DNA of 64,000 nt, taken from sequence record PZ386966.1; one strand, given 5' to 3'. Below, in pieces: positions 10,209 through 56,105 of this stretch. Under the pieces are notes generated by a model, which was given only the letters and a program-made list of their open reading frames with translations, was not told where the DNA came from and did not search any database. This DNA is from a phage. Position 1 is the first letter of the stretch, and each line of letters starts with the position of its first letter. The position numbers were made by a program, and so were the translations under genes.

Positions 10209-10232
10209 GTTGACAATGTACTTGACAAGGTG
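10209..10232 (+). promoter_or_regulatory. conserved promoter-like motif GTTGACAATGTACTTGACAAGGTG at divergent junction
   Basis: Two TTGACA hexamers 8 bp apart; near-identical copy at 56082-56105. Confidence 0.45.
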
Positions 10233-10406
10233 TTAATCTTTGCGAAGTGGGTTTTTACTTAAAAGGTTACTTAACAGTTTAACTATACAGACACTTTAAA
10301 ACTCTTAAAAGATTATTTAATAGCTTTTAAAAAGCTTTAAAGTATAACGTATAGAATACGTTAAGATAAAAGATTAAAACTTAATAGTTACTTAAAAGAG
10401 GCTTAC

Positions 10407-10829
10407 ATGCAGAAAATGTTTGTTCACCCAGACATAGCTGACTTTGTTAGGGCTTTGCAGAAGTTGGAAGAACTTGACATTGCTGCTCAACGGGAATATG
10501 CTCACCATCACAGGAGAATGGTTGATATACAACATGAAATAGAGTTGTCTGAAAACTACGAAGATGACTTAAAATGCTCTGTATTTGAGCATATGAAAGA
10601 TGTTGCTACAGCTAGACGTAAAGCTAAAGATACGGTTGCTTTACTAGATTCTCTTAAAAAGAGGTTGCAAAGTGGTACAGACCTGTGTAGTCTAGCGTCA
10701 CTGATTAACGATGTTGAAACTTCTTGGGATAGACATTACTATCCACGTTCTGAAAAGACGCTTGACTTTTCTTCATCTGAAAACTTAAAATGTTCTAGAA
10801 AGAAACTTAACCAACTGAGAGAGAAATAA
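10407..10829 (+). CDS. hypothetical protein
   Basis: 140 aa ORF, first gene of + block. Confidence 0.45.
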   Translation: MQKMFVHPDIADFVRALQKLEELDIAAQREYAHHHRRMVDIQHEIELSENYEDDLKCSVFEHMKDVATARRKAKDTVALLDSLKKRLQSGTDLCSLASLINDVETSWDRHYYPRSEKTLDFSSSENLKCSRKKLNQLREK

Positions 10830-10830
10830 T

Positions 10831-11643
10831 ATGAATACTACTGTAGACCAAATGCTTAAAGAAAAAGGTATTGACGAAGCATTCTTAATCAATGCCGTAG
10901 AAAGCATGGCTATGATTCTTCGTGGAAACAACTATACAGAACAGTTTATTCCTGAGAGTTACAACTTACCTAAAGATAAGTCTGATAACGGTGCTTTTGC
11001 AGAACAGGTTAACATGATGTTGACAGACCATGCACTAGCTCTTGCATCTATCGCTGTTGGTGTTGATGCACTTGCTGAGTTCATTTTTTATGAAATGCAG
11101 AAGAATGACTATATCAGGATGTCAGACGAAAATAAGGAACTGTTGCTGACTCAGGATACTGATTCCCTTATTGATACAATCATTGCATCAACAAGTGCTG
11201 TTATGGCTGCTCTTGAGAAGCGCATGGAAGAGAAGCTGTCACGATATGAAAAGCTTGATTGGGGTGTAGAAGAGTTAACCCCACGAATCAAAGAGATTAT
11301 CCAGCAAACTAAAGAGTCTTTAGAAGAAGCTGTGAAAGATGATTCTGTAGCTAATGTAGAACCACTACAGGTGAAAGTTGCTCTGATGATTCCAGCTATT
11401 TCTACAATGATGAATATCGTTGCACTAATCCAACTTTCTCAGATGTTGGGGGCAAGCATTGAGTTCATTGAGGAGATGACTGGTGGTGTCAGTATGCAAG
11501 CAATCAATGATGTTTTGGTAAACATTGGCGCTTCAATCATTGAAGAGAAGCTACGTATTAATTTTGGTGATGATTTTGTGAAGCAAGTCTCAGCTATGGC
11601 TGAAAAAGAGCAATCACAGATTACTAGTGAACAACTGCACTAA
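10831..11643 (+). CDS. hypothetical protein
   Basis: 270 aa ORF, acidic. Confidence 0.45.
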   Translation: MNTTVDQMLKEKGIDEAFLINAVESMAMILRGNNYTEQFIPESYNLPKDKSDNGAFAEQVNMMLTDHALALASIAVGVDALAEFIFYEMQKNDYIRMSDENKELLLTQDTDSLIDTIIASTSAVMAALEKRMEEKLSRYEKLDWGVEELTPRIKEIIQQTKESLEEAVKDDSVANVEPLQVKVALMIPAISTMMNIVALIQLSQMLGASIEFIEEMTGGVSMQAINDVLVNIGASIIEEKLRINFGDDFVKQVSAMAEKEQSQITSEQLH

Positions 11644-11704
11644 GTCTTTATAAATCTTACAAGCCTCCTTAGTTGGGGGCTTTTTAGTAATTAAGGTAGA
11701 AAGA

Positions 11705-12448
11705 ATGAGTAAAATTATCGCATTTACTGGAAAGGCACGTTCTGGAAAAGACACCTCATGCTCTATTGTGAAGGATATCTTAGAAGATGAGTACGGTTAC
11801 AACGTTGCGGTGATGGCTTTTGCAGACAATCTTAAACTCTCTGCATCAAAGATATTTGACCTGACTTGGAATGACCTGTACGGTGAAACTAAAGAGACAC
11901 CACAAGTCTTTGACTTATCATACTATAAACTCATGCCTAAAGTTACGGAAGCTATGGAGTTCACCTTCAAAGATGAACGTTATCATATGGACTTTAAACT
12001 CTTGTCAGAGTTGACTGGGCGATTAATCATGGAACTTAAGAAGGTCGCTAAACCGACTCTATTAACGCGTCTAGGACTCAGTGAGAAGTATAAATTCTCT
12101 TCAAGACAAATCCAACAGATTTGGGGAACTGAAGTTGTCCGTAAAGTCATGGGTGACAGGTTCTGGTCTAAAGACCTTGAGAAACGAATGGTTAGATTCT
12201 TTGATGTTTGCTCACTTAGAAATGAAGAAGGTGTTGTTTTAATCAGTGACTTAAGGTTTGATTCTGAAGCTGAGTGGCTGAGCAGATTTGCACACCAAAC
12301 TATTGAAGTAAAAAGAGACAATGCGGATAAGATTTCATCACACGTTTCAGAAAACGGTATTTCCACCAAATATGAGCGTGACATTATTCATAATAATGGT
12401 ACTCTTGCAGACCTTGAAAGCAAGCTAAGAGCTATCCTGAAAATTTAA
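11705..12448 (+). CDS. deoxynucleoside monophosphate kinase
   Basis: N-terminal P-loop IAFTGKARSGKDT typical of phage dNMP kinases. Confidence 0.6.
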   Translation: MSKIIAFTGKARSGKDTSCSIVKDILEDEYGYNVAVMAFADNLKLSASKIFDLTWNDLYGETKETPQVFDLSYYKLMPKVTEAMEFTFKDERYHMDFKLLSELTGRLIMELKKVAKPTLLTRLGLSEKYKFSSRQIQQIWGTEVVRKVMGDRFWSKDLEKRMVRFFDVCSLRNEEGVVLISDLRFDSEAEWLSRFAHQTIEVKRDNADKISSHVSENGISTKYERDIIHNNGTLADLESKLRAILKI

Positions 12449-12456
12449 AAGAGAGA

Positions 12457-12657
12457 ATGAAGATGAGAGTAAAAGATAATTTCAAAGTTATTGACCATCG
12501 TTTAGTGGAACTCTCATCTCTTTCCAATGAGGTAATGATTGAACGCCTTAAGAGAGTTGAATCACGAAGGAAAGAGATTGCAGATGAAATTCATGAACTG
12601 GACAAGATTGAAAATGGATTGAAGGCAGAACTACAACGAAGAGGTGCTAATGTCTAA
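12457..12657 (+). CDS. hypothetical protein
   Basis: 66 aa ORF with RBS. Confidence 0.35.
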   Translation: MKMRVKDNFKVIDHRLVELSSLSNEVMIERLKRVESRRKEIADEIHELDKIENGLKAELQRRGANV

Positions 12658-19733: not shown

Positions 19734-21968
19734 ATGATTAAGACAATTAAAAAATCAAATGGTACAGTAGTAAGCTTTGACCCAGAAAGACCGAATAAGT
19801 GGGCGTCATGGGCAGATAAACATGGAATTATCTGGTCAGAAGTCACTATGGAAGCTGTGAAACGTGTTTATGAAGGATGCACCACAAAAGAGATGCACCA
19901 AGCCATGATTGATGTTTGTGTTGATAAACAAACTCAAGAGTACTCAGAGATGGCTGGACGGCTACTTTTGGGTATCATCTACAAAGAAGCCTTTGGAGGC
20001 TTTACTAAGGTTCCTACGCTGGTTACCTTTGTTAAAAATATGGAGAGAGCAGGACTTTGGGAGAAGATGGATTATTCACAGGAAGAGCTTGAATACCTGC
20101 AAGGTTACATCGTACACTCAAAAGATATCTCTTACGGTTATGCAGTCTTGAAACAGTTCAGAGACAAGTATGGTATCCGTGATATTAAAACTGGAAGACT
20201 TTTTGAGTCACCACAGTTTATGTTTATGGGTATGGCTATGAAAGCCTTTGAGAAGCAACCAAAGCACCGTAGACTGCAAGATGTTATCAAGCTGTACACT
20301 TACCTGTCTGACCTGAAGATTAATGCTCCTACACCTTATTTAAACGGTTTAAGAGCCACCAAGTCAGGCTATGCGTCATGCTGTTTGATTAAGGCAAATG
20401 ATACTGCTGAGTCCCTCGGTATTGCTGCAAAGGTTGCTTATGATATGACCACAAAGCAAGCTGGTATTGGTATGCTGATGGAGACACGTACCATTGGTGA
20501 TGGTATCCGTCAAAATACGATTGAGCACATGGGTAAACTACCTTATTACAAGCTTGTACGCTCATCTGTAGAGGCAAACAAACAGAAGAGTCGTGGTGGT
20601 TCAGCTAATAACTTCTACACTGCTCTAGACCCGCAGATTGAAGATTTACTGCGTTTGAAGCACCCTACAACGGTTCCTTCTAAACGTATTAATGAGATGG
20701 ACTACTCATTCGGCACAAACGATTATTTCTGGCAGTGTGTTCAGTATGATACAGATTGGTTGCTATTCTCTTACAAAGATGCACCAAAACTCTATGACAT
20801 GTTCTACACAGCATCTGCTGATGAGTTTGCTATGGCAGTTGGTCACGCAGTACATTCAGGAGTTAAGCACAGACGAGTCAAGGCTCGTGAAATTGCTAAG
20901 CTGTTTATTCAGCAGCGTTATGCTACAGGTCGTGTGTATCCATTCTTCACTAACAATGCAAACACACATACACCATTTAAAGAGCCTTTGAAGATGTCAA
21001 ATCTTTGTATGGAAATTGTGTTGCCAGTGTATGGTTTTGAGAAAGAGACAGACCTTTACAGAGATGATGCTGTGAAAGAGGATGGTGAGGTGGCTCTTTG
21101 CTTCCTAGCTAGTTTGGTTGCAGGGAGAATTTCAGAAGATGAATACGCTGACGTTGCTTATTATGCTCTTGCAATGGTTGACTCCGTTATTGACCTTATG
21201 GATTATCCGTATCCGTCGATGCGTAACCATGTTCAGAAGCGTCGTTCTGTTGGGATTGGCCTTACAAATGTGGCTCATTACCTTGCGAAGAACTATGTGA
21301 ACTACTCTTCACGAGCAGGTAAGACGAAGCTTCATGAACTTGCAGAGATGCACTCTTACTATCTGCATGAAGCCTCTCTGAGACTGGCTAAAGAGCGTGG
21401 TGTTCCAGAATACATGAAGTTCACTAAGTATCCTGAAGGCTGGGTTCCTCCAAAGACAGCTAACAAGAAAATTGATGAAAAGCATGATGCAAAACTACGA
21501 TATGATTGGGATGACTTAGCACAACGTATCAAAGAAAATGGTGGAATCCGAAACTCTGTATTAGAAGCTTACATGCCTAATGAGAGTTCTTCACTAGCAA
21601 CTAATACGACAAATGGCTTGTATCCAATTCGTGACTTTATTTTAACTAAAAAGTCTGCAACTGGTAACGTACTGTTTATTGTTCCAGATTATGAAGAGTT
21701 GAAGTATGTCTATGAAATTGCTTGGGATATTGACACCTTTGATATGATTGATTGTTATGCAATTGTTCAAAAGTTCACTGGTCAAGCTATCTCTTCAGAC
21801 TTCTATGTTGACTATGCAAAGTCTAAGAAGGTATCATTGTCTCAAGCTTTGAAGTACATGATTTATGCCAACTCGGTAGGTATGAAAACCATGTACTACC
21901 TTAACAGTCGCATTGGTGTAGGTAAATCTGCACTGCAAGATGCTTATTGCGAGGGTTGTGGTGTTTAG
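19734..21968 (+). CDS. nrdA: ribonucleoside-diphosphate reductase large subunit (class I)
   Basis: 744 aa; catalytic-site NLCMEIVLP motif. Confidence 0.85.
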   Translation: MIKTIKKSNGTVVSFDPERPNKWASWADKHGIIWSEVTMEAVKRVYEGCTTKEMHQAMIDVCVDKQTQEYSEMAGRLLLGIIYKEAFGGFTKVPTLVTFVKNMERAGLWEKMDYSQEELEYLQGYIVHSKDISYGYAVLKQFRDKYGIRDIKTGRLFESPQFMFMGMAMKAFEKQPKHRRLQDVIKLYTYLSDLKINAPTPYLNGLRATKSGYASCCLIKANDTAESLGIAAKVAYDMTTKQAGIGMLMETRTIGDGIRQNTIEHMGKLPYYKLVRSSVEANKQKSRGGSANNFYTALDPQIEDLLRLKHPTTVPSKRINEMDYSFGTNDYFWQCVQYDTDWLLFSYKDAPKLYDMFYTASADEFAMAVGHAVHSGVKHRRVKAREIAKLFIQQRYATGRVYPFFTNNANTHTPFKEPLKMSNLCMEIVLPVYGFEKETDLYRDDAVKEDGEVALCFLASLVAGRISEDEYADVAYYALAMVDSVIDLMDYPYPSMRNHVQKRRSVGIGLTNVAHYLAKNYVNYSSRAGKTKLHELAEMHSYYLHEASLRLAKERGVPEYMKFTKYPEGWVPPKTANKKIDEKHDAKLRYDWDDLAQRIKENGGIRNSVLEAYMPNESSSLATNTTNGLYPIRDFILTKKSATGNVLFIVPDYEELKYVYEIAWDIDTFDMIDCYAIVQKFTGQAISSDFYVDYAKSKKVSLSQALKYMIYANSVGMKTMYYLNSRIGVGKSALQDAYCEGCGV

Positions 21969-25985: not shown

Positions 25986-25996
25986 AACTTGACATG

Positions 25997-26034
25997 GTGG
26001 TGTGAGTCTTGATAGGCTTACACCACCTTTTTTA
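25997..26034 (+). terminator. intrinsic terminator
   Basis: GGTGGTG...CACCACC stem then TTTTTT. Confidence 0.55.
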
Positions 26035-35215: not shown

Positions 35216-35294
35216 AGTGTTTGACAAGGGGCTTTGAAGCCCCTTAGAATAGCCTCACAAAATGATTTATTAACTAACAAGAGAGAGTAATAAG

Positions 35295-40997: not shown

Positions 40998-41050
40998 TTT
41001 GCAGCAGACAGGGTGACAAGCCCACTAACCTAAACTGGAGAATCTAAGAA

Positions 41051-41434
41051 ATGGCATACCGTGCAACTAAGTTCATCAACAAAGATAACTTCCGCAATGT
41101 ACTGGAGAAGTCACTTGATGAAAATTTCAAAGGTAATACTATTGTTGTTCACGCATTTAATTTTAAATATGACGTAAATGGTAACAGGATTAACCATTAC
41201 ACGGCAACCATGTTAGACGGTACTCTGTCAAGTGAAAAAGCAATTTTACATGCACTTGCAGGACGTGGTAAAAACCTGATAAGATGCGATAAGAGACGTT
41301 ATCAAGGTGGTGCATATGGTTACGATGATGCTATCTATCATCTTGAGAATATGGGCTATCTAGTAGAAAAAGCGGGAGTACCCCAAATTATTGGTAGTGA
41401 TGGCTATGTAACAATTTTCAAAATTAACCGATAA
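41051..41434 (+). CDS. hypothetical protein (small-gene array 1)
   Basis: Preceded by conserved TAAACTGGAGA..ATG initiation region. Confidence 0.5.
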   Translation: MAYRATKFINKDNFRNVLEKSLDENFKGNTIVVHAFNFKYDVNGNRINHYTATMLDGTLSSEKAILHALAGRGKNLIRCDKRRYQGGAYGYDDAIYHLENMGYLVEKAGVPQIIGSDGYVTIFKINR

Positions 41435-41519
41435 AGTACTTTACAAGGGGCTTAGTAGTTGATACCTTAAGCCCCAGATAAAGAGCTTTACCACTAAATC
41501 CTAAATTGGAGATTCAAAA
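41431..41519 (+). repeat. intergenic element A copy 1 (TAAAGTACTTTA palindrome + GGGGCTTA/TAAGCCCC hairpin + conserved RBS)
   Basis: Near-identical to copy at 43111-43199. Confidence 0.7.
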
Positions 41520-41810
41520 ATGGCTATTATCAAAAACGTTGTAGTTCCTGCAAAAACTCGTGATGACGCTCGCATCATGGCGAAAAAGTTAGGCGGGAAA
41601 GTGGTTGACAACGGAAAACAATCTGCTGTAAGGTGGGGCGTAAAGGCTGATAAGCAGTTGAAGTTAAAAAATTCACCAATAAACCTTTTTACATGTGTAA
41701 ACACTATCGGGAAGACAAATGTATACACGAAAAAGGCATATATTAGACGCGTAGCCTTAACATCCCCCATTCGTACAATGAGAGGTTATGCAAAACTGAA
41801 AATTAACTGA
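41520..41810 (+). CDS. hypothetical protein (array 2)
   Basis: ORF after element A. Confidence 0.5.
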   Translation: MAIIKNVVVPAKTRDDARIMAKKLGGKVVDNGKQSAVRWGVKADKQLKLKNSPINLFTCVNTIGKTNVYTKKAYIRRVALTSPIRTMRGYAKLKIN

Positions 41811-41899
41811 TAAAGTACTTTACAGGGGGCTTAAAAGTTGGTATCTTAAGCCCCAGATAAAGAGCTTTACCACTCAATCCTTAAACTAGGAGAGTCAAA
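41811..41899 (+). repeat. intergenic element A copy 2
   Basis: Same palindrome and stem, different loop. Confidence 0.65.
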
Positions 41900-42112
41900 A
41901 TGAACATTAATCAAAAACTGAAAGCCGCCTCACAAGTCCTATTCACAGATGATGACTATTTCAATAAAGACCTTACAGGTTTGAAATCTCTCAAAGAGAT
42001 TAAAGAGCGCATGAAAATTTATGGAAAACCTCGGTTAGTTGGCGTATTCTCTAACTGTTATGTTTATCAGCTTAATGGTCATTACAATTTTACAATTACT
42101 ATTTTATCCTAA
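41900..42112 (+). CDS. hypothetical protein (array 3)
   Basis: ORF after element A. Confidence 0.45.
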   Translation: MNINQKLKAASQVLFTDDDYFNKDLTGLKSLKEIKERMKIYGKPRLVGVFSNCYVYQLNGHYNFTITILS

Positions 42113-42128
42113 ACTGGAGATTCAAAAA

Positions 42129-42425
42129 ATGAAATTATCAAATAAAGTTCGTGAAAATCTGAGCAAGTTACTCAACAAAATTGATTTCATTGAAACATCA
42201 AGAAATAGTCATGATGTTATGGAATGGTTACACGGCAAAATAAAAGGTCGTCGTGTAGTAATTTGCTTATGGAATAGTTGCAGGGAGTATAAAAAACCTG
42301 TATTACAAATCAATGTTTATGATGATACTTTTAAAAGTCCTGTAAAGTCTAAAAGCGATTTATTAGAATCCTATGAGATATCTGTAAATGGTAAAGTGTC
42401 ACGTAAAGAGGAAACACCATGCTGA
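42129..42425 (+). CDS. hypothetical protein (array 4)
   Basis: ORF 42039-42425 trimmed to Met following conserved CTAAACTGGAGATTCAAAAAATG. Confidence 0.45.
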   Translation: MKLSNKVRENLSKLLNKIDFIETSRNSHDVMEWLHGKIKGRRVVICLWNSCREYKKPVLQINVYDDTFKSPVKSKSDLLESYEISVNGKVSRKEETPC

Positions 42426-42751
42426 TGACTGGTATCACTGCAATCATTGCCATTTTCGCACTCTATAAGGCATATAAAGCCTATAATCTAGCAAATAAAG
42501 CAATCACGCAGCAGGTTAGCAATAGCCTTGTAGAGAGCTTTCTAGAGCGCCTCAGTGATGAGCAAATAAAACGGCTAGAGATGAGCTTCAGATATAAAGC
42601 GAAAACCTATCAGATAAGTGACATCTTCAAAGATGATTTTCAGTTAGTCGATGATTATAATTCACTGATAAATGCTTTAAATATCAGTGACTTAAAAGAC
42701 TACTACGCTGTAATTGTTCAAGAATTGAGCAAACGAAAACAAAGTGTTTGA
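42419..42751 (+). CDS. hypothetical membrane protein (array 5)
   Basis: N-terminal hydrophobic segment MLMTGITAIIAIFALY. Confidence 0.45.
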   Translation: MLMTGITAIIAIFALYKAYKAYNLANKAITQQVSNSLVESFLERLSDEQIKRLEMSFRYKAKTYQISDIFKDDFQLVDDYNSLINALNISDLKDYYAVIVQELSKRKQSV

Positions 42752-42841
42752 CACTGGTTTTTAGATAGATTAAATTACACATCAACGGGGAGGGAATGAC
42801 CTTCCCCACTAAGTAAAGTCCTTAAACTAGGAGATTCTAAA
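42748..42841 (+). promoter_or_regulatory. element B copy 1: promoter (TTGACA-17-TAAATT) + GGGGAGG..CCTTCCCC hairpin + RBS
   Basis: TTGACA 42748-53, TAAATT 42771-76, hairpin 42787-42807. Confidence 0.6.
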
Positions 42842-43114
42842 ATGTATACTACTAACAACGGTCGTACTTTAAATGTCACTCTACGTCACTATGTAGATGG
42901 TGTAATGTGCTTTGAGGATTTACAAGCTGAGCAACACATCTTAGATTGGCAACTTGCAGGACTCCAAAAAACTACTACTGGATACGGTAAAAAGATTCCA
43001 ACTAGCTGGAAAGTATACTACGAAGGACGTTTGCGCAGAATTTATCAAGATGTGTATAGTAATAGTGCATCAAGTTACATCATGGTAAAAGGTAAAAAAC
43101 TGCATTTAGTATAA
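42842..43114 (+). CDS. hypothetical protein (array 6)
   Basis: ORF after element B. Confidence 0.5.
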   Translation: MYTTNNGRTLNVTLRHYVDGVMCFEDLQAEQHILDWQLAGLQKTTTGYGKKIPTSWKVYYEGRLRRIYQDVYSNSASSYIMVKGKKLHLV

Positions 43115-43199
43115 AGTACTTTACAAGGGGCTTAGTAGTTGATACCTTAAGCCCCAGATAAAGAGCTTTACCACTAAATCCTAAATTGGAGATTCAAAA
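43111..43199 (+). repeat. intergenic element A copy 3
   Basis: Identical by eye to copy 1. Confidence 0.7.
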
Positions 43200-43604
43200 A
43201 TGGCTATTAATGACCGTGAGTTATCAATACTGAAAGCACGTTTGACCGTTAACCGGATTAATGTTATTACATCATCAGCACCTGATGAGACATTGCACAA
43301 CATTATTGGAAAGATTCAAAGTGTTATCTTAGACGTTGAAAATGTAAAAAACTCATTGGCTGACGTTGCAGCAGGTATCACGCTAGACGGCGCACAATAT
43401 GAAATGGCTGACATGTTAGGCAAATCAAAGGTAATGAATAAAGAATTAGACTTGAAAATGTTCAGATTTGCTGTTAAAGTGTGGCTATCCGTCGAGTATG
43501 ACGCCAATTTTGCAATCGCTGATTTCTTTGCCACTTGGTTACAACGTAACTTAACAAGCTATGATTTTCGTGATATCTGTGATGCAATTTATGCAGAACT
43601 CTAA
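43200..43604 (+). CDS. hypothetical protein (array 7)
   Basis: 134 aa ORF. Confidence 0.5.
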   Translation: MAINDRELSILKARLTVNRINVITSSAPDETLHNIIGKIQSVILDVENVKNSLADVAAGITLDGAQYEMADMLGKSKVMNKELDLKMFRFAVKVWLSVEYDANFAIADFFATWLQRNLTSYDFRDICDAIYAEL

Positions 43605-43610
43605 AAACTG

Positions 43611-43704
43611 TTGACACTGGTTTTTAGATAGATTAAATTACACATCAACGGGGAGGGAATGAACTTCCCCACTAAACAAAGTCCTTAAACTAGGAGACTC
43701 AAAA
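43611..43704 (+). promoter_or_regulatory. element B copy 2
   Basis: TTGACA 43611-16, TAAATT 43634-39, hairpin 43650-43670. Confidence 0.6.
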
Positions 43705-43908
43705 ATGGCTATTATTAACGGCTTAAACATCGAAACAACACACATCAAAGACATTAAAGTTGGTGATGTAGTCCTTTCCCACGGCGTAGAGAAAACTGTT
43801 ACTGCAAAGGATATCAAAGAGGATTCTTTCATGGGTAGGACTCTCTTCGGTGATTCTTATTGCTTAGGGTATCTTGCAGTTTTAAAAGTTGTCAAAAATA
43901 ACAAATAA
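43705..43908 (+). CDS. hypothetical protein (array 8)
   Basis: 67 aa ORF. Confidence 0.45.
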   Translation: MAIINGLNIETTHIKDIKVGDVVLSHGVEKTVTAKDIKEDSFMGRTLFGDSYCLGYLAVLKVVKNNK

Positions 43909-43994
43909 AGTACTTTACAAGGGGCTTATAGTTAGATAAAGTAAGCCCCAGATAAAGAGCTTTACCACTAAATCCTTAAACTAGGAGAGTCAAA
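43906..43994 (+). repeat. intergenic element A copy 4
   Basis: Same palindrome; stem GGGGCTTA/TAAGCCCC with different loop. Confidence 0.65.
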
Positions 43995-44537
43995 ATGAAA
44001 TGCTTTCACGGCACTACTCAAGAAAATTTTATCAATCTGATTAATAACGGCGATAAGCCATCAGGTGCATGGAATTGTTCGGATATGGACGGCAATTTTT
44101 ACGTGTATCCAGAAAATAAAATCTATGGCGACGATGAGGAAGAGATAACATCCGAAGGTATTCAACAAGCATTAGGAAATGCCACTATTACCGCAGCTTT
44201 TCAGATGAAGACTCAAAATATTGTTATCTTAGAACTTGACATTCCAGAGGATGAGTTAAATGATGATTACTCTTGTGATAATATGTCAAGCGTGGCAAGT
44301 TTTACAGAGTACTTTGATTTAAATTGGATTAAAAAGGTTTACATCACTGAGTTTAATGCTATGTTTTCGCCTTTTTGTCTTCCTTCACTGGATAACCCCA
44401 ATTTAAACTATCTTGATGAGTCTCTGGAGCTTCTTGCTAAAAGTGTTCAACAGTCCGACAGTATTCAGGTTTTTTGTGATATCATGGATACACTGACAGG
44501 AAACATCACAGAAAGAGATTTGAAGAGTTTTTTCTAA
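43995..44537 (+). CDS. hypothetical protein (array 9)
   Basis: 180 aa ORF, hairpin terminator after it. Confidence 0.5.
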   Translation: MKCFHGTTQENFINLINNGDKPSGAWNCSDMDGNFYVYPENKIYGDDEEEITSEGIQQALGNATITAAFQMKTQNIVILELDIPEDELNDDYSCDNMSSVASFTEYFDLNWIKKVYITEFNAMFSPFCLPSLDNPNLNYLDESLELLAKSVQQSDSIQVFCDIMDTLTGNITERDLKSFF

Positions 44538-44603
44538 AAACCTATGCAATCACCTTATAAACACTGATTAGCCCCTTGTAGGGGCTTTTAGAGGGCTTAA
44601 ATC

Positions 44604-44837
44604 ATGCTTACAACTGTTTACCTCATCCTTTCCATCTGTAATGGTCATTCATGTGATTTTAAAGGGCTTGAGGAGTTTACAGGGAGTAAAGAAAATGCTA
44701 TTCAAGTTTGCCAGATAGCAAGACAAGACTATCCCGCCAGTGATGATATTCAATGCTACTTTAAGACAGAAGATGAAGACGGCGTCTATTTTGACAGTGT
44801 CGATGGTCAATATGAAATTATCATTGAAAAAGACTAG
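44604..44837 (+). CDS. hypothetical protein (array 10)
   Basis: 77 aa ORF. Confidence 0.4.
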   Translation: MLTTVYLILSICNGHSCDFKGLEEFTGSKENAIQVCQIARQDYPASDDIQCYFKTEDEDGVYFDSVDGQYEIIIEKD

Positions 44838-44927
44838 ACAAGCCTGATAAAAATCTGTAAATTGTCAATCAACGGGGAGGGAATGACCTTCCCCACTAAA
44901 TAAAGTCCTAAACTGGAGAATCTAAAA
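44835..44927 (+). promoter_or_regulatory. element B copy 3 (variant -35 TAGACA)
   Basis: TAGACA-17-TAAATT, hairpin 44873-44893. Confidence 0.5.
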
Positions 44928-45269
44928 ATGGCTTATGTAACCGTAATTACCGATAAAGCTGGCGCATCTTGGTCAACTCAGGTCAGTGATAAGATGTCAC
45001 CTATGCAGTGCCTAAAATACTTTGAACAGTGGAATAAAGGCGAGGACACAAGCCCCTTTCAAGTGATGCAGATTATCCATGTAGACAACGAAGGGAATAA
45101 AACGACGCTGAATAGTGAGTACTATGCAAGCCGTTTTGAAACGAGAAGTAAAACAATGAAACTTTTACGTGAATCCGGTTATACCCATATCGCCGCGTTA
45201 ATCTGGGATGACCTGCTAAAAAGTCAGCGTATCAGCTATGTAAAACCTGAAAAAATATTCATCAGTTAA
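44928..45269 (+). CDS. hypothetical protein (array 11)
   Basis: 113 aa ORF. Confidence 0.5.
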   Translation: MAYVTVITDKAGASWSTQVSDKMSPMQCLKYFEQWNKGEDTSPFQVMQIIHVDNEGNKTTLNSEYYASRFETRSKTMKLLRESGYTHIAALIWDDLLKSQRISYVKPEKIFIS

Positions 45270-45300
45270 TCAATGACTTACAAAAAACTTTTAAAAAGAT

Positions 45301-45325
45301 GTTGACAATCCCTCTTGACATTGGT
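45301..45325 (+). promoter_or_regulatory. double-TTGACA promoter-like motif GTTGACAATCCCTCTTGACATTGGT
   Basis: Same architecture as motifs at 10209 and 56082. Confidence 0.4.
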
Positions 45326-45398
45326 AACTTTGTTCGAGGGGGTTTATCTAAAAGGGATTAACTTAAAAGATTCTTTATAGATAGACTTAAAAAATTGC

Positions 45399-45491
45399 TT
45401 GCAATCAGATATCAAAACAAGTAAATTACTCATCAACGGGGAGGCAATAACCTCCCTACTAAGTAAAGTCCTTAAACTAGGAGATTCTAAA
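45399..45491 (+). promoter_or_regulatory. element B copy 4 (compensated stem GGGAGG..CCTCCC)
   Basis: TAAATT box 45423-28, hairpin, conserved RBS. Confidence 0.5.
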
Positions 45492-46022
45492 ATGAACAAG
45501 TTCAAAGCTATCAACTATATTCGTTCAAATAATGTAATGTCTAAGCCTGTTAAAGATACCTATGAATTTCGTTGCAATGGTGAGCACTTTGCTACTATCA
45601 CTAAATCAGAAAACGGGGCTTATTATATCCATCGTCGTAATGTTTCTACGGTTGTAGTTTCTAACTTTATGCAAGCTGTAGCGGAACTCCTCCCGCTCTT
45701 CTTAGAAAAGTATACCGTACAGTGTGAAAGTGTTCGTGAATGCACTAAAACAGTGTTAAACGGTTATCGTATGGCTTACGAGCGCTCTTTAAAGAATCTC
45801 AACAAGTACTACAAAGCACCGGAAGGTACTACCTCGACAGCCTACGGGGTAGGGGGCTTCAATGTTAGCCTTTACGAAGTGGAAGAAATCGAGCTTTATG
45901 ACCATCGCCCAAATGGTTACGCTAAAACACTGGGGGAAGGGTTAATGATGAATATCAAGAACTTAGAAAAAACTTTAAGAGAAATTGAAAAAGACATTGA
46001 CGAGACAATCACGAATCTGTAA
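45492..46022 (+). CDS. hypothetical protein (array 12)
   Basis: ORF 45399-46022 trimmed to MNKFKAINY after conserved RBS. Confidence 0.5.
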   Translation: MNKFKAINYIRSNNVMSKPVKDTYEFRCNGEHFATITKSENGAYYIHRRNVSTVVVSNFMQAVAELLPLFLEKYTVQCESVRECTKTVLNGYRMAYERSLKNLNKYYKAPEGTTSTAYGVGGFNVSLYEVEEIELYDHRPNGYAKTLGEGLMMNIKNLEKTLREIEKDIDETITNL

Positions 46023-46024
46023 AG

Positions 46025-46083
46025 TGTCTTTTAACGGGGGATGACCTCCCCCACTAAACAAAATCCTAAACTGGAGATTCAAA
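46025..46083 (+). promoter_or_regulatory. element B copy 5 (hairpin + RBS)
   Basis: GGGGGATGACCTCCCCC hairpin and conserved initiation region. Confidence 0.45.
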
Positions 46084-46347
46084 ATGGAACACGTAGAATT
46101 GACCACACTGTTACAGATTGCAACCGACAAAGAGGATGTAGCATTATTCCATCGTATCGAGAGTGATTTGTTCAATGGTGAAATCATTAAAGAGTCTTAC
46201 GAAGTTGTCGGATTCAAAGACGGTAAAGCGTTCGGATTCTTTGACCTCGACAAAGGCAAAGCGGTTACAAAATATGATGTTTTATCTTGTGAGATTCTGA
46301 CAAAATACAACGAAAAAAGGCTTGCAACATACGCCAACATGCAGTAA
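46084..46347 (+). CDS. hypothetical protein (array 13)
   Basis: 87 aa ORF. Confidence 0.5.
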   Translation: MEHVELTTLLQIATDKEDVALFHRIESDLFNGEIIKESYEVVGFKDGKAFGFFDLDKGKAVTKYDVLSCEILTKYNEKRLATYANMQ

Positions 46348-46415
46348 ATTACTAATCAACGGGGAGGTTATTGCCTCCCTACTAAGTAAAGTCCTTAAAC
46401 TAGGAGATTCAAAAA
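46347..46415 (+). promoter_or_regulatory. element B copy 6 (hairpin loop is the reverse complement of copy 4)
   Basis: GGGAGGTTATTGCCTCCC versus GGGAGGCAATAACCTCCC. Confidence 0.5.
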
Positions 46416-46664
46416 ATGGCAACTATCCGCGCAACTGTCAATGCTTATGGCTGTTATACCCTGGACGTTAAATTTGATATTGGTGGAACTGATGAGTGTT
46501 TTTCATTAGTGAAGACAGTTATCAAGCAAGTTATCCCAGATTATAACCCTACTGATGACTTCTGGAAAGACGCTGTAAAAGAGGCATTAAACGACGAGCA
46601 TCACTATCATTACTGGGGTGACTTGATTATCTCACTGTACTACAATAAACAAGGTTACAACTAA
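46416..46664 (+). CDS. hypothetical protein (array 14)
   Basis: 82 aa ORF. Confidence 0.5.
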   Translation: MATIRATVNAYGCYTLDVKFDIGGTDECFSLVKTVIKQVIPDYNPTDDFWKDAVKEALNDEHHYHYWGDLIISLYYNKQGYN

Positions 46665-46702
46665 TCGACGCAACGGGGCTAAATAGCCCCAGATACCTTT
46701 AC

Positions 46703-46726
46703 AGCCCCATTTAAGGGGCTTTTTTA
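46703..46726 (+). terminator. intrinsic terminator ending the + strand block
   Basis: AGCCCC-ATTTA-AGGGGCT then TTTTTT. Confidence 0.65.
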
Positions 46727-46900
46727 CGTCTATGTAATAGCCTCTATACAATCCTTTCCCTTTCCTTTCCAGAGTCTATCCCACTAATTTGATAGAATCT
46801 ATCTCGTACCTTAAAAGCAATAACTCTATAGTCTACTCTATAATCTCTTATCAAATCAACTTAAATATAAGCCCATAACCCGAAAGGGAAGGGCAACCGT

Positions 46901-46927
46901 TTAATTGGTATTGTTACCAATCCCTAA
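46901..46927. repeat. 27-bp exact repeat TTAATTGGTATTGTTACCAATCCCTAA (copy 1), contains TTGGTA..TACCAA palindrome
   Basis: Second copy at 47596-47622. Confidence 0.7.
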
Positions 46928-47595
46928 ACGCTCTATAAAGCTCTATAACAGCCTTATCAACCTAACTTAAGGGATTGCATTAACTCACCTTAAAAAGCTC
47001 TTTACAGGGCTTTATAGAGGCTTAAAAGAATCTTATAAGGTTATAAGCTTTATTATCTCGTTAGCTATCTTGTGAACTACTAAAAAGGGGCTTGTTAGTA
47101 TCTTAAAAGTATGTTATAGGGGCTATAAAGTTACTCCAAAGTTACGTAAATGTTAGCCCCCTTAACATTTTCTTAACAATTTCTTAACAAACCCTACATA
47201 GTTATGCTTGTTAGCCCCTTGTTAAATCTCTGTTACAACCATGTAAAAGCCTTGTAAGAACCTTTGACATAGCCTTTAAAGCCTCTGTAAAGCCCTATAA
47301 AGAGCTATCTGTACAGTTGGGCTGTAGTTACTAGGGAGAGACTTAAAAGGGGCTATGCAGAGCTATACAGAGCTTTTAAGAGGTATGTTTAAAGAATCAC
47401 TAAGAGGGAAAGGGAACGATAAGAAAAGAAAGTTGTGTTTGTAAACAACCACTGTGACCATGTTAACAGCTTGTTAAAAAGATTAAACACTTGTTAGGAA
47501 CTTGTTAATTATCTTAACAAAATAACTCTTTAAAATTAACTTGTTAGCTCTTGTTAATCATCTGTTAAGACTCTGTAAAGACTATGTATCAACTG

Positions 47596-47622
47596 TTAAT
47601 TGGTATTGTTACCAATCCCTAA
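47596..47622. repeat. 27-bp exact repeat (copy 2)
   Basis: Identical to 46901-46927. Confidence 0.7.
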
Positions 47623-48355
47623 GAAACTGTTACGCTCTTGTTAGTTCTGTTAAGGAACTGTTAAGACCTTTGAAGGGTTGTTAAGAAGATGTGAGAACTG
47701 TTAAGAGATTGTTAAGGATATTTTAAAATTTTGCAAAGGGGGTGTTAAGGAGCTGTTAAGGGCTACCAAGCAGATATACATCTTCTACAGATATTTTTCA
47801 GTTCCTTCAAAGACCCTGAAAAATGACTTGACAGTCTTATTTTATAAAAATTTTAAAATTCTGAATAATTACCTATACAGTCTTTTAAAAATACAGGCAT
47901 AAACAGGCTTATAAGATACCTTGTTAGTACCGTGTTAGACCTTGTGAGATAAGGTCTGTGAAGATATTCCTGTTAAGTTTGTTAAAACAGTCTATATAGA
48001 GGTTTAGTAGTACCTAGTGAACACCTATAGAGAGTATCATAGCTGACATAGAGATTAAGAGGTGTATAGGGGCTTCTAAGAGGCTATAGAGAGATGGTTA
48101 AGGTGATTGTATAGGTTGTTAAGAAGGCTTGTTAGAAGAGTGTTTAGAAGGGCTATACAGAGGGGCTATTAAGACCACTAGATAGATACTAAGATACTAT
48201 ATAGTACTATATAACTATATAGAGAGTAAGATTAAGAAGGTTGTTAAGAAGGGTAGATATTTTATTCACATATGATGGTGACCCAGAGGTTGGGACAACC
48301 GATGAAATTTTATAAAAATTAAAAAGCCCCCAATTAAGGAGGCTCTTAAGATATT

Positions 48356-51883: not shown

Positions 51884-52169
51884 CGTTAAACTCTCTGACG
51901 AAGAAATAGTTGACTTTATTATTACCTACCATAAGGTCAAAGCAGGTATTCTCAAAAGGTTTGTTGTAGGCATCGTATGAAGTGTACGTATCAGCTACTT
52001 GTTTAGTATTGAGCTTTTTACTTGATGGGTTTAAGAGGCCACCATACAGTTTCTTGATAGCCTCTTCTACAACAGACCAGATAATTTCGTCAGTAATTTC
52101 TTCGTACAGGTCAAGTTCACGCTCTAGTGAGAAGTCACAAATAGGGAAGATAACCTGTACTTTGCTCAT
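51876..52169 (-). CDS. hypothetical protein
   Basis: 97 aa ORF. Confidence 0.4.
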   Translation of the reverse strand: MSKVQVIFPICDFSLERELDLYEEITDEIIWSVVEEAIKKLYGGLLNPSSKKLNTKQVADTYTSYDAYNKPFENTCFDLMVGNNKVNYFFVREFNDE

Positions 52170-52958: not shown

Positions 52959-52969
52959 AGTTTTCTCCT

Positions 52970-52999
52970 TAGAAAATAAAAAAGGCTCCCGAAGGAGCC
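52970..52999 (-). terminator. intrinsic terminator downstream of lysozyme gene
   Basis: GGCTCC-TTCG-GGAGCC hairpin with T-run on minus strand. Confidence 0.6.
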
Positions 53000-53009
53000 T
53001 ATGAAGATA

Positions 53010-53474
53010 TTACTTTGGATATACACTGTCAAGATAAATGTCAGCTTCCATTCTACGTCTGTTTTTCAGGCCGTTTGAAGTGACCTTCTTACCTTTTACT
53101 GTAACCTTGTTCCACCACTGCATAGCTTCTGCACAACCGACCTTATTACCAGCATTGTGGCGCTTGATAAATGTAGAGTCCTGCATAGCTGTGATACCAA
53201 TGTTGTATGTTTCACTTACAAGTGCATCAAACTCATTCTGAGAAGTTGGAACCTTGATGGCTTTGTTCACTGCTGCAACGAACTTTTCAACATCTGCAAG
53301 AAGATACTGTTCAGCTTGTTCAGCGGTAATCTTCATACCCATCTTAACAGGTTTTCCGTCAATACGGATTGTCCCATACCCGATTGTTGGGATTCCGGCA
53401 GAGTCTTCGTAAGCCTCTAACTTCAGACCTTCAAAGAACTTAATAGCCTCTAAACCTTTTCTTGAGAGTTGCAT
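53010..53474 (-). CDS. lysozyme (T4 e-type, GH24 family) endolysin
   Basis: LEAIKFFEGLKLEAYEDSAGIPTIGYGT catalytic-region signature. Confidence 0.85.
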   Translation of the reverse strand: MQLSRKGLEAIKFFEGLKLEAYEDSAGIPTIGYGTIRIDGKPVKMGMKITAEQAEQYLLADVEKFVAAVNKAIKVPTSQNEFDALVSETYNIGITAMQDSTFIKRHNAGNKVGCAEAMQWWNKVTVKGKKVTSNGLKNRRRMEADIYLDSVYPK

Positions 53475-54607
53475 TATGCCTCCCCTGCTGGACTAACTGT
53501 AACTGTCGCTGCATTAGATGTTACAGAACCACCTGCACCAGTAACTACACAGGTGTAGCTTCCTGAATCAGCAGCGGTTGCACCTTCTTTGGTGTAAGTT
53601 GCAGTAGTTGCATCGAGGATATCTTCCTCACCTTTCTTCCACTGGTAACCTGTTGCACCTGTTGCCACAACATTCAGTGTTAAGGTCTCACCTTCATTGA
53701 TTTCTTGATTGGTTGGCTGTTGAGTGATTACTGGAAGTGCATTCACAGTAACTGTTGCAGCGTTAGACGTTACAGAGCCACCTGCACCTGTTACAATGCA
53801 AGTGTATGAACCTGCATCTGCTGGCAGAGCACCAGACTTGCTATAGGTAGCATTTGTAGCTGAAGGAATGTCAGAGCCATCTTTCTTCCATTGGTAACCT
53901 GTTGCACCTGTTGCAGTAACTGCTAAGTTGATGTTTCCACCTTCATTAATAGTCTGGTTAGAAGGTTGCTTGGTAATCACAGGTAGTGCGTTAACAGTAA
54001 CTGTTGCCGCATCTGAGGTAACGCTTGTTCCAGCCTCTCCAGATACAACACAAGTGTATGAACCAGCATCAGAAGGTACTACAGACTGTTTTGTGTAGGT
54101 TGCAGATGTGGCGCTAGTGATATCCTCACCATCTTTTTTCCATTGATATCCAGTGGCATTAGTTGCAATAACGCTTAGGTTAAGTGTACCACCTTCATTT
54201 ACTGTTTGATTGGTTGGTTGCTGAGTGATTGATGGTGGCTTGATAGCATCCTTCAACTTAGCATTCAACATTGAGAATGGTTTAACTCTTGCCAGCCATT
54301 CACAATAAACTGTATCAACATCTTTACCATTGATAATTGCATATTGCAAGTCCATGAAGAAGTCAGACGTTCTCATTTGAGCACCAACGCTGTAAAGCAA
54401 CTCATCACTAAATGGAACTTTGTAGTCTGGTTTGTAGTCAAACTTCTCAACTTCTGCAATATCAGCTTCAGGCCAATACGAACTATAGGTAAGTGGTAAA
54501 ATAGCCTCTTGATATGTTCTAAAATCATATCTCTTACCAGCCTTTACGTTCGCAACGAAGCCCTTCACAAACTCTTTGAAGTCTGGGTAAGTCTTTGCTT
54601 TAATCAT
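53474..54607 (-). CDS. protein with three tandem Ig-like repeats
   Basis: Three ~85-aa near-identical repeats (..QPTNQTINEGG..ATGYQWKKDG..SYTC(V/I)VTGAGGSVTS..ATVTVNA); N-terminal domain paralogous to 54604-54975. Confidence 0.6.
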   Translation of the reverse strand: MIKAKTYPDFKEFVKGFVANVKAGKRYDFRTYQEAILPLTYSSYWPEADIAEVEKFDYKPDYKVPFSDELLYSVGAQMRTSDFFMDLQYAIINGKDVDTVYCEWLARVKPFSMLNAKLKDAIKPPSITQQPTNQTVNEGGTLNLSVIATNATGYQWKKDGEDITSATSATYTKQSVVPSDAGSYTCVVSGEAGTSVTSDAATVTVNALPVITKQPSNQTINEGGNINLAVTATGATGYQWKKDGSDIPSATNATYSKSGALPADAGSYTCIVTGAGGSVTSNAATVTVNALPVITQQPTNQEINEGETLTLNVVATGATGYQWKKGEEDILDATTATYTKEGATAADSGSYTCVVTGAGGSVTSNAATVTVSPAGEA

Positions 54608-54975
54608 TTCTTTTTAGCCTCTAAATGTGCGTTTAGTCTAAAATAACCTTTGTGATGCGGAGATACATCACCAACAACAATACCTTTAACCTTATAGCCT
54701 TTACCAATTACATACTGGATATCCATAAGGAATCTTCCAAGTCCAACAATATGGAACATTGGGTATAATAGGTTCTCAGAATCTGGAATATTGATTTCAG
54801 GTTTGTAGGTACGCTGTTCGCTTGTTGGTGTAATATCTTCTTCAGGCCATTTACTGAGTCTCCATGTCAAAGGTGTTGGGATAACATCATTAAGGCTGTA
54901 CCTTTCACCATTTTGCACGGAATTGATATAGGATTGTAGGAAGCAATAAAAGTCTTTTGCACTCTTAGCTTTCAT
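54604..54975 (-). CDS. paralog of N-terminal domain of the Ig-repeat protein
   Basis: MKAKSAKDFYCFLQSYINSVQNGERY vs MIKAKTYPDFKEFVKGFVANVKAGKRY; FLMDIQYVI vs FFMDLQYAI. Confidence 0.5.
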   Translation of the reverse strand: MKAKSAKDFYCFLQSYINSVQNGERYSLNDVIPTPLTWRLSKWPEEDITPTSEQRTYKPEINIPDSENLLYPMFHIVGLGRFLMDIQYVIGKGYKVKGIVVGDVSPHHKGYFRLNAHLEAKKK

Positions 54976-55022
54976 TAAGTATCCTTATAAATAGTTAAAG
55001 GGGCATCAGCCCCTATTCACAC

Positions 55023-55613
55023 TTAAGCTTTGGTCTTAAGTAGGTTCTTAAGTTTTTTAAGATTCATACTCTCATCAAACTTAAAACCAAATCCATTGAC
55101 ATAATCAATGAACTCGGATTTCTTACTGAGTGACAATGCGTAACTCATATCAAAGTTCTTACTTGTTTCTGCGTCTGGACTAGAGTTCACATCAAATGAA
55201 ATTTCCGTAGGCTCTTGCTTACTTTTTCTCATATTATCAACCAACAAACATGTATAGTTTGCTGGATAGAAATTTACACTACCATCAACGTAGCTGTACT
55301 TATTATTATGGATAAGGTTGGAAAATACCTTAAGGAATGTTTCTGAGTCGTGGCAAACAAGTTTGAATTGGCTGCTCTCTCCAAGCGCAACTAATGAGTA
55401 CGGACTTTCACTATCAAAGTCATAATTTTGATTCGATGCCGTTACTGTTACACGCATCAAGTTATTAGCAATAGTCTTCTGTTTAAAAGAATTTTGAACA
55501 TAGTGAAGACCTCTATCACACTGATTGACTAGCTCTTTAAGCAGGTCATTTGCATATGGTGAATTAATTGATACAGAGCCATCACTATTGTAATTAAAAC
55601 TTACTGTTAACAT
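55023..55613 (-). CDS. hypothetical protein
   Basis: 196 aa ORF. Confidence 0.45.
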   Translation of the reverse strand: MLTVSFNYNSDGSVSINSPYANDLLKELVNQCDRGLHYVQNSFKQKTIANNLMRVTVTASNQNYDFDSESPYSLVALGESSQFKLVCHDSETFLKVFSNLIHNNKYSYVDGSVNFYPANYTCLLVDNMRKSKQEPTEISFDVNSSPDAETSKNFDMSYALSLSKKSEFIDYVNGFGFKFDESMNLKKLKNLLKTKA

Positions 55614-55840
55614 TTTTCAGTTCTCCTGCGGTTTATAATTTTGCTGCAATAGAGAAACGAAGTAAACTCACTGGAAGAAACCATTAAGTGTTGTTCACTA
55701 GATTGAGCCATTGCCCTGAAATACATTCCAGTCAAAGCATCATAGTGACTATTCTTTCCAATTGAGGTTATATAGCCATGACTCTTTGCAGTTTGATATA
55801 AATCTATAATATCTGCGATTTCTAATTGGGAACTACACAT
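55607..55840 (-). CDS. hypothetical protein
   Basis: 77 aa ORF. Confidence 0.35.
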   Translation of the reverse strand: MCSSQLEIADIIDLYQTAKSHGYITSIGKNSHYDALTGMYFRAMAQSSEQHLMVSSSEFTSFLYCSKIINRRRTEKC

Positions 55841-56081
55841 AGATAATCCTCTTGTCTTCTGTAATTTTGAAAGAACAGGTACAGACCAATTTCAGAGGAC
55901 GAATAGTAGATTAATTCTACCCTTTTTGATTCCTTACAGTGATTGGTATTCTTACCTTTCTTCGGTTTATTTGATTTTCTCATTAAGTCTCCTTTGTAGA
56001 ACAAGGCAGACCTACAGCTTTAAGTAAGATGGTACAGTAATCCATACAACAAGTCAAGAACTATTGCAAGTTAAAAAAGTT

Positions 56082-56105
56082 GTTGACAAAGTACTTGACA
56101 AGGTG
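56082..56105 (+). promoter_or_regulatory. conserved promoter-like motif GTTGACAAAGTACTTGACAAGGTG at divergent junction
   Basis: 23/24 identical to motif at 10209-10232. Confidence 0.45.

Follow-up and report, generated by a model that had tools for sequence, protein, structure and literature searches.

The DNA analysed here is a stretch of 64,000 nucleotides from a phage (record PZ386966.1, one strand; below called the window), and the subject is a tandem TTGACA motif found in three of its intergenic regions. The three doubles start at positions 10210 (site 1), 56083 (site 2), and 45302 (site 3). They are best explained as promoters read by the primary sigma factor of the host, sigma-70, which carry in the spacer between the -35 and the -10 hexamers an extra -35 hexamer offering sigma region 4 a second place to dock. 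We assign this joint explanation a probability of about 0.6.

By its sequence the window belongs to a Felixounavirus (Ounavirinae). The roughly 3 kb surrounding site 1 display 95-98% identity to many Felix O1-like myoviruses, and the gene order is that of Felix O1. An earlier note on this DNA had pointed out that GTTGACAATGTACTTGACAAGGTG at 10209-10232 and GTTGACAAAGTACTTGACAAGGTG at 56082-56105 share 23 of 24 bases, that both are found within divergent intergenic regions where the genes switch from the minus to the plus strand, and that the related GTTGACAATCCCTCTTGACATTGGT is present at 45301; all of this is borne out, coordinates included. The observation is real and non-random. With up to three mismatches allowed, the 24-mer has two matches in the window against 0.00 expected (100 shuffles), while TTGACA-N4..12-TTGACA has three against 0.24 expected, a number reached in 0 of the 100 shuffles. 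The gap between the hexamers is 6 or 7 bp. Site 1 lies between the DNA polymerase gene (minus strand, start at about 10150) and a plus block beginning at 10407, and site 2 between a minus block ending at about 55983 and a plus block beginning at 56233. Site 3 is situated between two plus-strand genes, away from any strand switch. All three are co-directional with the next gene and are found 120-190 bp before its start. When the motif search was extended to the complete Felix O1 genome (86,155 bp), exactly three doubles were found, at 63532, 21515, and 11269; these are the orthologues of sites 1, 2, and 3, respectively, and the window thus contains the whole set. An identical 23-mer followed by TATGAT in an IMG/VR contig (L034) was discarded, as it is a chance coding match inside an open reading frame of 233 aa, where it encodes VDKALDKV.

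The three sites have the anatomy of sigma-70 promoters. The -35 hexamer is a perfect TTGACA (6/6) at 10210, 45302, and 56083 and in every orthologue, and TAnnnT is found 17 or 18 bp past this first hexamer in 13 of 13 sequences (three sites, up to five phages each). The -10 hexamers keep T-12, A-11, and T-7, the positions that matter most to sigma-70. Each first hexamer is preceded by a tract of 73-82% A+T ending in AAAAAG, whose likeness to the UP consensus was judged by eye. The second hexamer is found within the spacer, the layouts (gap + hexamer + gap) being 6+6+6, 6+6+5, and 7+6+4. No TAnnnT was found 15-19 bp past the second hexamer in any of the 13 sequences; the best candidates there match 1-4 of 6 positions and are without A-11 or T-7. 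As it has no -10 partner, the second hexamer is not a second canonical promoter. That sites 1-3 are sigma-70-type promoters with the first hexamer as their -35 is very likely. The reverse complement of the hexamer, TTGTCA, was also considered as a leftward -35. Since the one candidate is found at site 2 (TTGTCA-N18-AATAGT with a TG), and none at sites 1 and 3, this is not a general explanation. Just past the -10 of site 2 is the T4 late-promoter word TATAAATA, which was dropped because it is not conserved (AATAAAAC in Mooglevirus).

In Mooglevirus (Mijalis, Sf14) and Suspvirus (mistaenkt, EcSzw_1) the double is kept at all three sites wherever sequence was obtained. Both hexamers and T-12, A-11, and T-7 are invariant in alignments of Felixouna-, Moogle-, and Suspvirus, and variation is greatest in the bases that separate the hexamers, which read AAGTAC, AAGCA, TTCCTC, or AATGAC at site 2. 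Variation in the -10 is confined to its interior (TA[A/G]TCT, TAG[G/C]CT, TA[AC/GA]TT). Among 21 felixounavirus contigs from IMG/VR compared over 88 bp around site 1, every base substitution falls in the 6-bp gap between the hexamers, the only remaining difference being a 1-nt change in the length of a T-run in one contig. As judged from these alignments, the pattern is the footprint expected of a sigma-70 promoter combined with selection on the second hexamer. Kolesnikvirus (the Erwinia phages Coenus and vEam_W_25) has a single cTTGACA-N17-TACATT at the position of site 1; no double was found within its first 42 kb, and the region equivalent to the gene 40/41 junction displays ordinary single promoters. 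The first hexamer is thus the ancestral -35, and the doubling is derived in the enterobacterial genera.

The same architecture is found in phages of another lineage. IMG/VR was scanned with GTTGACAA-N3..8-CTTGACA, a pattern from which TAnnnT is absent, and the matching contigs were mostly unrelated to Felix O1. TAnnnT was present 17-18 bp past the first hexamer in 50 of the 112 non-Felix matches, against about 6 expected (an estimate from base composition). About 43 of the 50 come from a single type of locus, a short stretch between genes that directly precedes the late sigma gene g55 in fragments of aquatic T4-like myoviruses (g55 was identified by phrog_234, E = 3e-63, and has SbcD/gp47 as neighbour gene). 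The tandem -35 promoter is there directed away from g55. Because the first pattern forced perfect hexamers, the clade was re-sampled by gp55 protein similarity. TTGACA-N5/6-hexamer-N5/6-TAnnnT was found in 65 of 67 unique upstream regions, and in all 65 the first hexamer is perfect, with TAnnnT 17 bp away. Of these 65 regions, 59 also have a perfect second hexamer, four have it with one mismatch, and two with two mismatches. The six variants include five (TTGCCA twice, TTGACT, TTGCCG, and TTGCCT) with an intact TTG, to which, within the -35, sigma-70 responds most strongly. With information contents of 2.00 and 1.89 bits, the first and the second hexamer are both well above the gap that follows (0.64 bits). 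Regions in which the hexamers are 5 rather than 6 bp apart make up for it by 1 bp more before the -10, and the first hexamer thus stays 17 bp from the -10. The cultured cyanophage S-8S56 and the marine virus AG-345-E02 have a single CTTGACA-N17-TACAAT at the position upstream of g55. Comparison of the doubles with these single-hexamer relatives indicates that the doubling of the -35 arose at least twice and was kept each time. Judged by its conservation in both lineages, the second hexamer is kept by selection.

The loci from the g55 region are L049 (3964-4050), L155-L234 from IMG/VR, L153, and L154, and an Rfam scan of the T4-like loci gave nothing meaningful. The tandem -35 promoter, highly conserved there, lies about 22 nt from the start codon of g55, and past it is a conserved cGGTGT. 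It is oriented antisense to the upstream gene, whose 3' end it points into; an antisense RNA may be made from it, or it may hinder transcription from reading through into g55. In Synechococcus phage S-8S56 (L153, 1090-1190) the near-palindromic CTTGACAAG apparently serves as -35 in both directions: TTGTCA-N17-TATAAT faces g55, and the opposite strand reads TTGACA-N17-TACAAT.

If this interpretation is correct, host RNA polymerase with its primary sigma factor would read sites 1-3, its alpha subunits contacting the UP-like tract. The primary sigma factor is favoured because it is the only common reader of TTGACA across the host ranges of both groups of phages. Site 1 would fire rightward into the replication and nucleotide-metabolism block, site 2 rightward into gene 41, gene 42, and the tRNA cluster, and site 3 rightward into gene 22, with starts predicted some 7 nt past the -10 (about 10246, 56118, and 45337, respectively). 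At the TTGACA in the spacer, sigma region 4 would have a further place to dock. It is the most economical reader, since the word is the -35 consensus, the variants follow the -35 hierarchy, and the doubling recurs in unrelated phages, and we regard the chances that region 4 does read it as about even. Docking would raise the capture or occupancy of polymerase at promoters where a weak -10 leaves them reliant on -35 and UP contacts; that this is the effect of the second hexamer is a tentative suggestion. The second hexamer may also slow escape. Polymerase generally advances by roughly 12 bp before region 4 of sigma loses its place. The first hexamer and the -10 stay 17-18 bp apart, but the position of the second hexamer shifts by about 1 bp with respect to either, a freedom of register that suits a loosely placed extra site better than a rigid dimer operator. 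Spacer sensing has been described for the sigma residue R451 at -18 (PMC3130263), but such a contact was rejected here, as the second hexamer floats between -24 and -17 and has no fixed position. A large E. coli mutagenesis study, in which promoters were not repressed by additional -10 and -35 boxes, argues against a pure decoy role.

A more far-reaching proposal, which we consider doubtful, is that a -35 hexamer in the spacer, about 12 bp past the true -35, is a distinct selectable element that has arisen independently at least twice and makes a "sitting duck" promoter of very high occupancy or limited escape. Sigma region 4 would then read the second hexamer in an alternative closed complex, or after some 12 bp of forward movement. 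Such a promoter could be of use in outcompeting the abutting divergent promoter at sites 1 and 2, and in blocking head-on read-through into the late sigma gene in the T4-like clade. From the arrangement of the sequences, promoter competition or interference is plausible at sites 1 and 2 and at the T4-like locus, which faces read-through into g55.

Some observations weigh against reading the sites as host promoters with a second docking site. The earlier note called the -10 candidates weak, and they are: the hexamers match TATAAT at only 3/6 positions, and a standard consensus scan for this reason rejects every site. To our knowledge no mechanism has been described that would let a promoter benefit from a -35 hexamer placed at -24 to -17. 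The T4-like clade also shows good conservation (1.6 bits) of the gap between the hexamers, and the second hexamer may there be part of a larger protein site. A literature search for start-site or RNA-seq data on Felix O1-like phages gave nothing useful. End-point reverse transcription PCR (RT-PCR) in Felix O1 gave a maximum at 5 min for gene 22, and at 25 min for genes 41, 42, 96, and 97 (PMC3185647). Because of these 25-min maxima a simple immediate-early label fits sites 1 and 2 poorly, although this is weak evidence.

The same 25-min maxima, for genes 41 and 97, could be taken to favour another explanation, namely that the second hexamer, or the pair, is the operator of a phage regulator that switches the promoter off or on during infection. 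The phage does encode a helix-turn-helix regulator, the HTH_3/XRE protein at 2945-3274, which is the sole candidate trans-acting factor found. Direct repeats with a period of 12-13 bp resemble the tandem boxes of head-to-tail binders, and co-regulation is suggested by the weak -10s, the long and ultra-conserved leaders, the CTTAAAAG words, and the perfect palindromes common to all three sites. The repeated word is, however, the exact sigma-70 -35 consensus, and the spacing of the hexamers varies from 5 to 7 bp. It is well established that dimers of the XRE type normally bind inverted rather than direct repeats. Since the same doubling of TTGACA arose in unrelated T4-like phages of other hosts, a regulator site is the less likely alternative, and on balance we find it unlikely. 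Much less probable still is that the -35 module was once duplicated in tandem, as a unit of 12 bp, and left the second hexamer behind as a neutral, functionless relic. Together with the bases before it (ACAAAGTAC-TTGACA), this hexamer does mimic the AAAAAG-NNN-TTGACA module, and the 12-bp units of site 2 match at 10 of 12 positions (read by eye). A relic would nevertheless hardly be expected to stay perfect in three genera, at all three sites, amid changing neighbours. Nor would it be expected to be perfect in 59 of the 65 T4-like sequences, a diverse set in which it scores 1.89 bits and the adjacent gap 0.64; this conservation argues that the hexamer is not neutral.

Two overlapping promoters, each hexamer having its own -10 and the starts being 12 bp apart, would be in line with the fact that overlapping promoter-like signals are common in bacteria. 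This alternative is contradicted by the sequence, where TAnnnT or better is missing at 15-19 bp from the second hexamer in 13 of 13 cases, and has very little probability left. The same is true of a phage-specific promoter class, a possibility raised in the earlier note, if taken as one read by a phage polymerase (as in T7 or N4) or sigma factor, and of a non-transcriptional signal such as an origin or a packaging site. The idea drew on a conserved block that exceeds a -35 box and on two copies located at strand-switch points. The promoter part of it stands, given the sigma-70 anatomy and the comparative evidence, but the phage-specific part is unsupported: the consensus -35, the 17-18 bp to TAnnnT, and the UP-like tract point to sigma-70 instead, and the Erwinia orthologue is a plain single-hexamer sigma-70 promoter. 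There are further only three copies per genome, site 3 is away from any strand switch, all copies are co-directional with downstream genes, and the genome ends and a repeat-rich non-coding region are located elsewhere, at 46665-48355. Neither a phage RNA polymerase nor a sigma modifier has been reported for Felix O1 (PMC3185647).

The paper on Felix O1 (Whichard et al., 2010, PMC3185647) predicted a promoter, P41, as TTGACA(N15)TATAGG at 21515-21541, and found nothing else in the 40-41 or 96-97 intergenic regions, the second of which is where site 1 lies. P41 is site 2 (56083 in the window, 21515 in Felix O1) and was predicted there as a host-type promoter. In the paper the hexamer is paired with TATAGG at N15, and neither the second hexamer nor site 1 or site 3 (21/22 region) is mentioned. 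It also states that Felix O1 encodes no RNA polymerase and no apparent modifiers of the host polymerase, that its temporal control is unknown, and that the divergent transcription at the gene 40/41 junction is odd. None of the predicted promoters listed as hexamers with coordinates in the supplement to the UAB_Phi87 paper could be matched to sites 1-3, and a (noisy) literature search for "tandem -35" gave nothing useful. The promoter class is known, one member (P41) having been predicted already; the conserved tandem -35 is, as far as found, undescribed and unexplained.

Strong sigma-70 early promoters of lytic coliphages are found in T5, T7 (A1-A3), and T4 (early), and carry UP-like A/T tracts. 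Like sites 1-3 they have a consensus or near-consensus -35, a spacer of 17-18 bp, and an A-rich tract upstream, and they are generally known to head early or replication units and to depend on unmodified host polymerase. Sites 1-3 differ from them in having a minimal -10 (TAnnnT, 3/6) and a second perfect TTGACA in the spacer; we know of no description of such a spacer-embedded hexamer for the early promoters of these phages. At lambda PR' a second -35-like hexamer, TTGACT, is reportedly used by sigma region 4 in the paused complex engaged by Q. As at sites 1-3, it is found downstream of the true -35, and it is there read outside the initial promoter complex. However, the lambda hexamer depends on Q and is found in the initially transcribed region, beside a pause element resembling a -10, while here it is located at -24 to -17, has no -10-like partner and is accompanied by no known Q-like factor. 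The boxes of PhoB (Pho boxes) and the MotA box of T4 are also words of about 7 bp, about one helical turn apart and just upstream of a -10 of the TAnnnT type. Boxes of the PhoB/OmpR type, however, have a fixed period of 10-11 bp and replace the -35, whereas the period is 12-13 bp here and 11-13 bp in the T4-like clade; furthermore, the repeated word here is the sigma-70 -35 itself, with its first copy at the canonical -35 distance. A T4-type middle promoter, where a MotA box (TGCTTtA) centred at -30 takes the place of the -35 and phage MotA and AsiA are needed, is not indicated, as no MotA-box word was found at sites 1-3, where a canonical -35 is present at the canonical distance instead. Modifiers of the MotA/AsiA type are not reported for Felix O1 (PMC3185647), and the phage proteome was not searched for AsiA or MotA.

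Table 1. Features of the window, with promoter elements, starts, and leaders as predicted.
Feature	Position	Strand	Remarks
Site 1, UP-element-like tract gcaaaaaattataaaaagcaag	10188..10209	+	77% A+T over the 22 nt before the first hexamer
Site 1, first TTGACA, -35	10210..10215	+	TAATCT 18 bp on; invariant in four genomes of three genera
Site 1, second TTGACA, in spacer, about -24 to -19	10222..10227	+	Invariant across genera
Site 1, -10 TAATCT after TGt (extended -10-like)	10234..10239	+	TAGTCT in Mooglevirus
Site 1, predicted start	about 10246-10247	+	Some 7 nt past the -10
Site 3, UP-like tract	45280..45301	+	82% A+T
Site 3, first TTGACA, -35	45302..45307	+	TAACTT 17 bp on; kept in Felix O1, Mijalis, mistaenkt
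Site 3, second TTGACA, in spacer, 7-bp gap after the first	45315..45320	+	Invariant across genera
Site 3, -10 TAACTT	45325..45330	+	TAGATT in Moogle- and Suspvirus
Site 3, predicted start	about 45337-45338	+	Some 7 nt past the -10
Site 2, UP-like tract, common to the back-to-back leftward promoter	56061..56082	+	73% A+T
Site 2, first TTGACA, -35 (P41)	56083..56088	+	TAGGCT 17 bp on; Felix O1 21515
Site 2, second TTGACA, in spacer	56095..56100	+	Invariant, with changing inter-hexamer gap
Site 2, -10 TAGGCT	56106..56111	+	TAGCCT in other genera
Site 2, predicted start	about 56118-56119	+	Some 7 nt past the -10
Site 1, predicted leader, 160 nt, CTTAAAAG-type words, two perfect palindromes	10246..10406	+	RNA fold z = -1.65
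Site 2, predicted leader, hairpin and 17-bp perfect palindrome CTTAAAAGCCTTTTAAG (56194-56210)	56118..56232	+	RNA fold z = -3.45
Site 3, predicted leader	45337-45398	+	
Candidate divergent promoter of the DNA polymerase gene, TTGCTT (10208-10203)-N17-TAATGT (10185-10180)	10180..10208	-	Inferred
Divergent leftward promoter, genes 40 to 24, TTGACT-N17-TACCAT	56029..56057	-	Fully conserved in alignment
Ordinary second promoter of the site 3 intergenic region, TTGCAA-N17-TAAATT, then 5' hairpin and Shine-Dalgarno (module B)	45399..45427	+	Repeat families D2-D4
Minus block, last gene DNA polymerase (Felix gene 96)	gene start ~10150	-	
Plus block, genes 97-131 and 1-23	10407 to ~46664	+	
Minus block, genes 40-24	after non-coding region, to ~55983	-	
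Plus block, gene 41, gene 42, then 23 tRNA genes (58267-63553)	from 56233	+	
HTH_3/XRE-type regulator (Felix O1 ORF85)	2945..3274	-	Pfam HTH_3, E = 6e-10; phrog_1373, E = 1e-26

The three doubles are members of a larger group. AAAAAG-NNN-TTGACA has 17 matches in the window against 1.5 expected, and with TAnnnT at N17/18 it is found before genes or tRNAs at 56617, 58120, 58211, 60069, 40970, 42748, and 43611, and on the minus strand at 4110. TTGACA alone is present in 54 copies on the plus strand, against about 21 expected. The layout is thus that of a general class of host-type promoters, within which the three doubles are set apart by the weakest -10s and the extra -35 hexamer in the spacer.

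Site 1 and site 2 both adjoin a promoter or candidate promoter pointing the other way. The -35 candidate TTGCTT of the polymerase gene is found back-to-back with the first hexamer of site 1, 1 bp apart, and its -10, TAATGT, is kept as TAGGGT in Mooglevirus. The leftward TTGACT-N17-TACCAT is located 25 bp from site 2, and the A/T tract is common to both. The tRNA cluster and gene 42 have UP-like TTGACA-N17/18-TAnnnT promoters of their own at 56617, 58120, 58211, and 60069, and the unit headed by site 2 is for this reason of a tRNA/early type rather than purely late. This may explain the divergent transcription at the 40/41 junction called odd in the Felix O1 paper. Terminator-like hairpins overlap some promoters (58115-58146, 35221-35250, and 25989-26030). 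At 58120 the -35 is within the loop of GGGTATT...AATACCC, listed as terminator t42 in the Felix O1 paper; at 35221 the spacer is the hairpin AGGGGCTTTGAAGCCCCT, and at 25989 TAGGCT is followed by a hairpin and a T-run.

The small-gene region at 41000-46700 contains repeated intergenic cassettes of two kinds. Module A is AAAGTACTTTACA-N17-TAnnnT, found at 41431, 41810, 43111, and 43905, where the inverted repeat GGGGCTTA...TAAGCCCC straddles the -10; its GTACTTTACAAGG is reminiscent of GTACTTGACAAGG, which surrounds the second hexamer at sites 1 and 2. Module B consists of TTGACA-N17-TAAATT, a 5' hairpin (GGGGAGG...CCTCCCC), and a Shine-Dalgarno sequence, with copies at 42748, 43611, 44835, 45398, and 46343. 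Both modules resemble the promoter-early stem-loop (PeSL) cassettes of T4-type phages.

The leader predicted for site 1 is nearly invariant across three genera and that for site 2 in five genomes; all three predicted leaders are more invariant than the promoters themselves in the three genera compared. They are rich in words of the type (A/T)CTTAAAAG(G/A)(T/A)T. CTTAAAAG is the top 8-mer of the non-coding DNA of the window, with 14 copies vs. 1.5 expected from an intergenic Markov background, and has 21 copies in the window as a whole vs. 5.5 expected. The leader of site 2 folds better than its shuffles (z = -3.45). An Rfam scan of the window gave tRNAs only, with no match within the predicted leaders. 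Perfect palindromes are AGCTTTTAAAAAGCT (10322-10336), AACGTATAGAATACGTT (10346-10362), and CTTAAAAGCCTTTTAAG (56194-56210). On sequence grounds they look like operators of a dimeric DNA-binding protein, for which the HTH_3 regulator at 2945-3274 is a candidate. A likeness of the leader word CTCTTAAAAG to boxA of lambda nutL was dropped, as the CTC part is not conserved between genera.

The region 46665-48355 comprises 1.7 kb without coding sequence, dense in the words CTTGTTA, CTGTTAAG, and TGTTAAG. From about 47166 onward the window aligns with the start of the published direct terminal repeat of the related phage UAB_Phi87, and the physical end of the genome is therefore probably found inside this region.

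If the proposed reading is true, sites 1-3 would be rightward promoters that fill gaps left in the Felix O1 paper, namely the region between the polymerase gene and gene 97, the 40/41 junction, and temporal control, and site 2 would feed the tRNA cluster and not late genes alone. A second -35 kept in the spacer in two unrelated phage lineages would be a simple architecture, and one that goes unscored in current promoter models. It could reveal how the capture and escape of polymerase are tuned at promoters with a weak -10, is directly testable with purified polymerase, and could serve as a compact design element in synthetic promoters.

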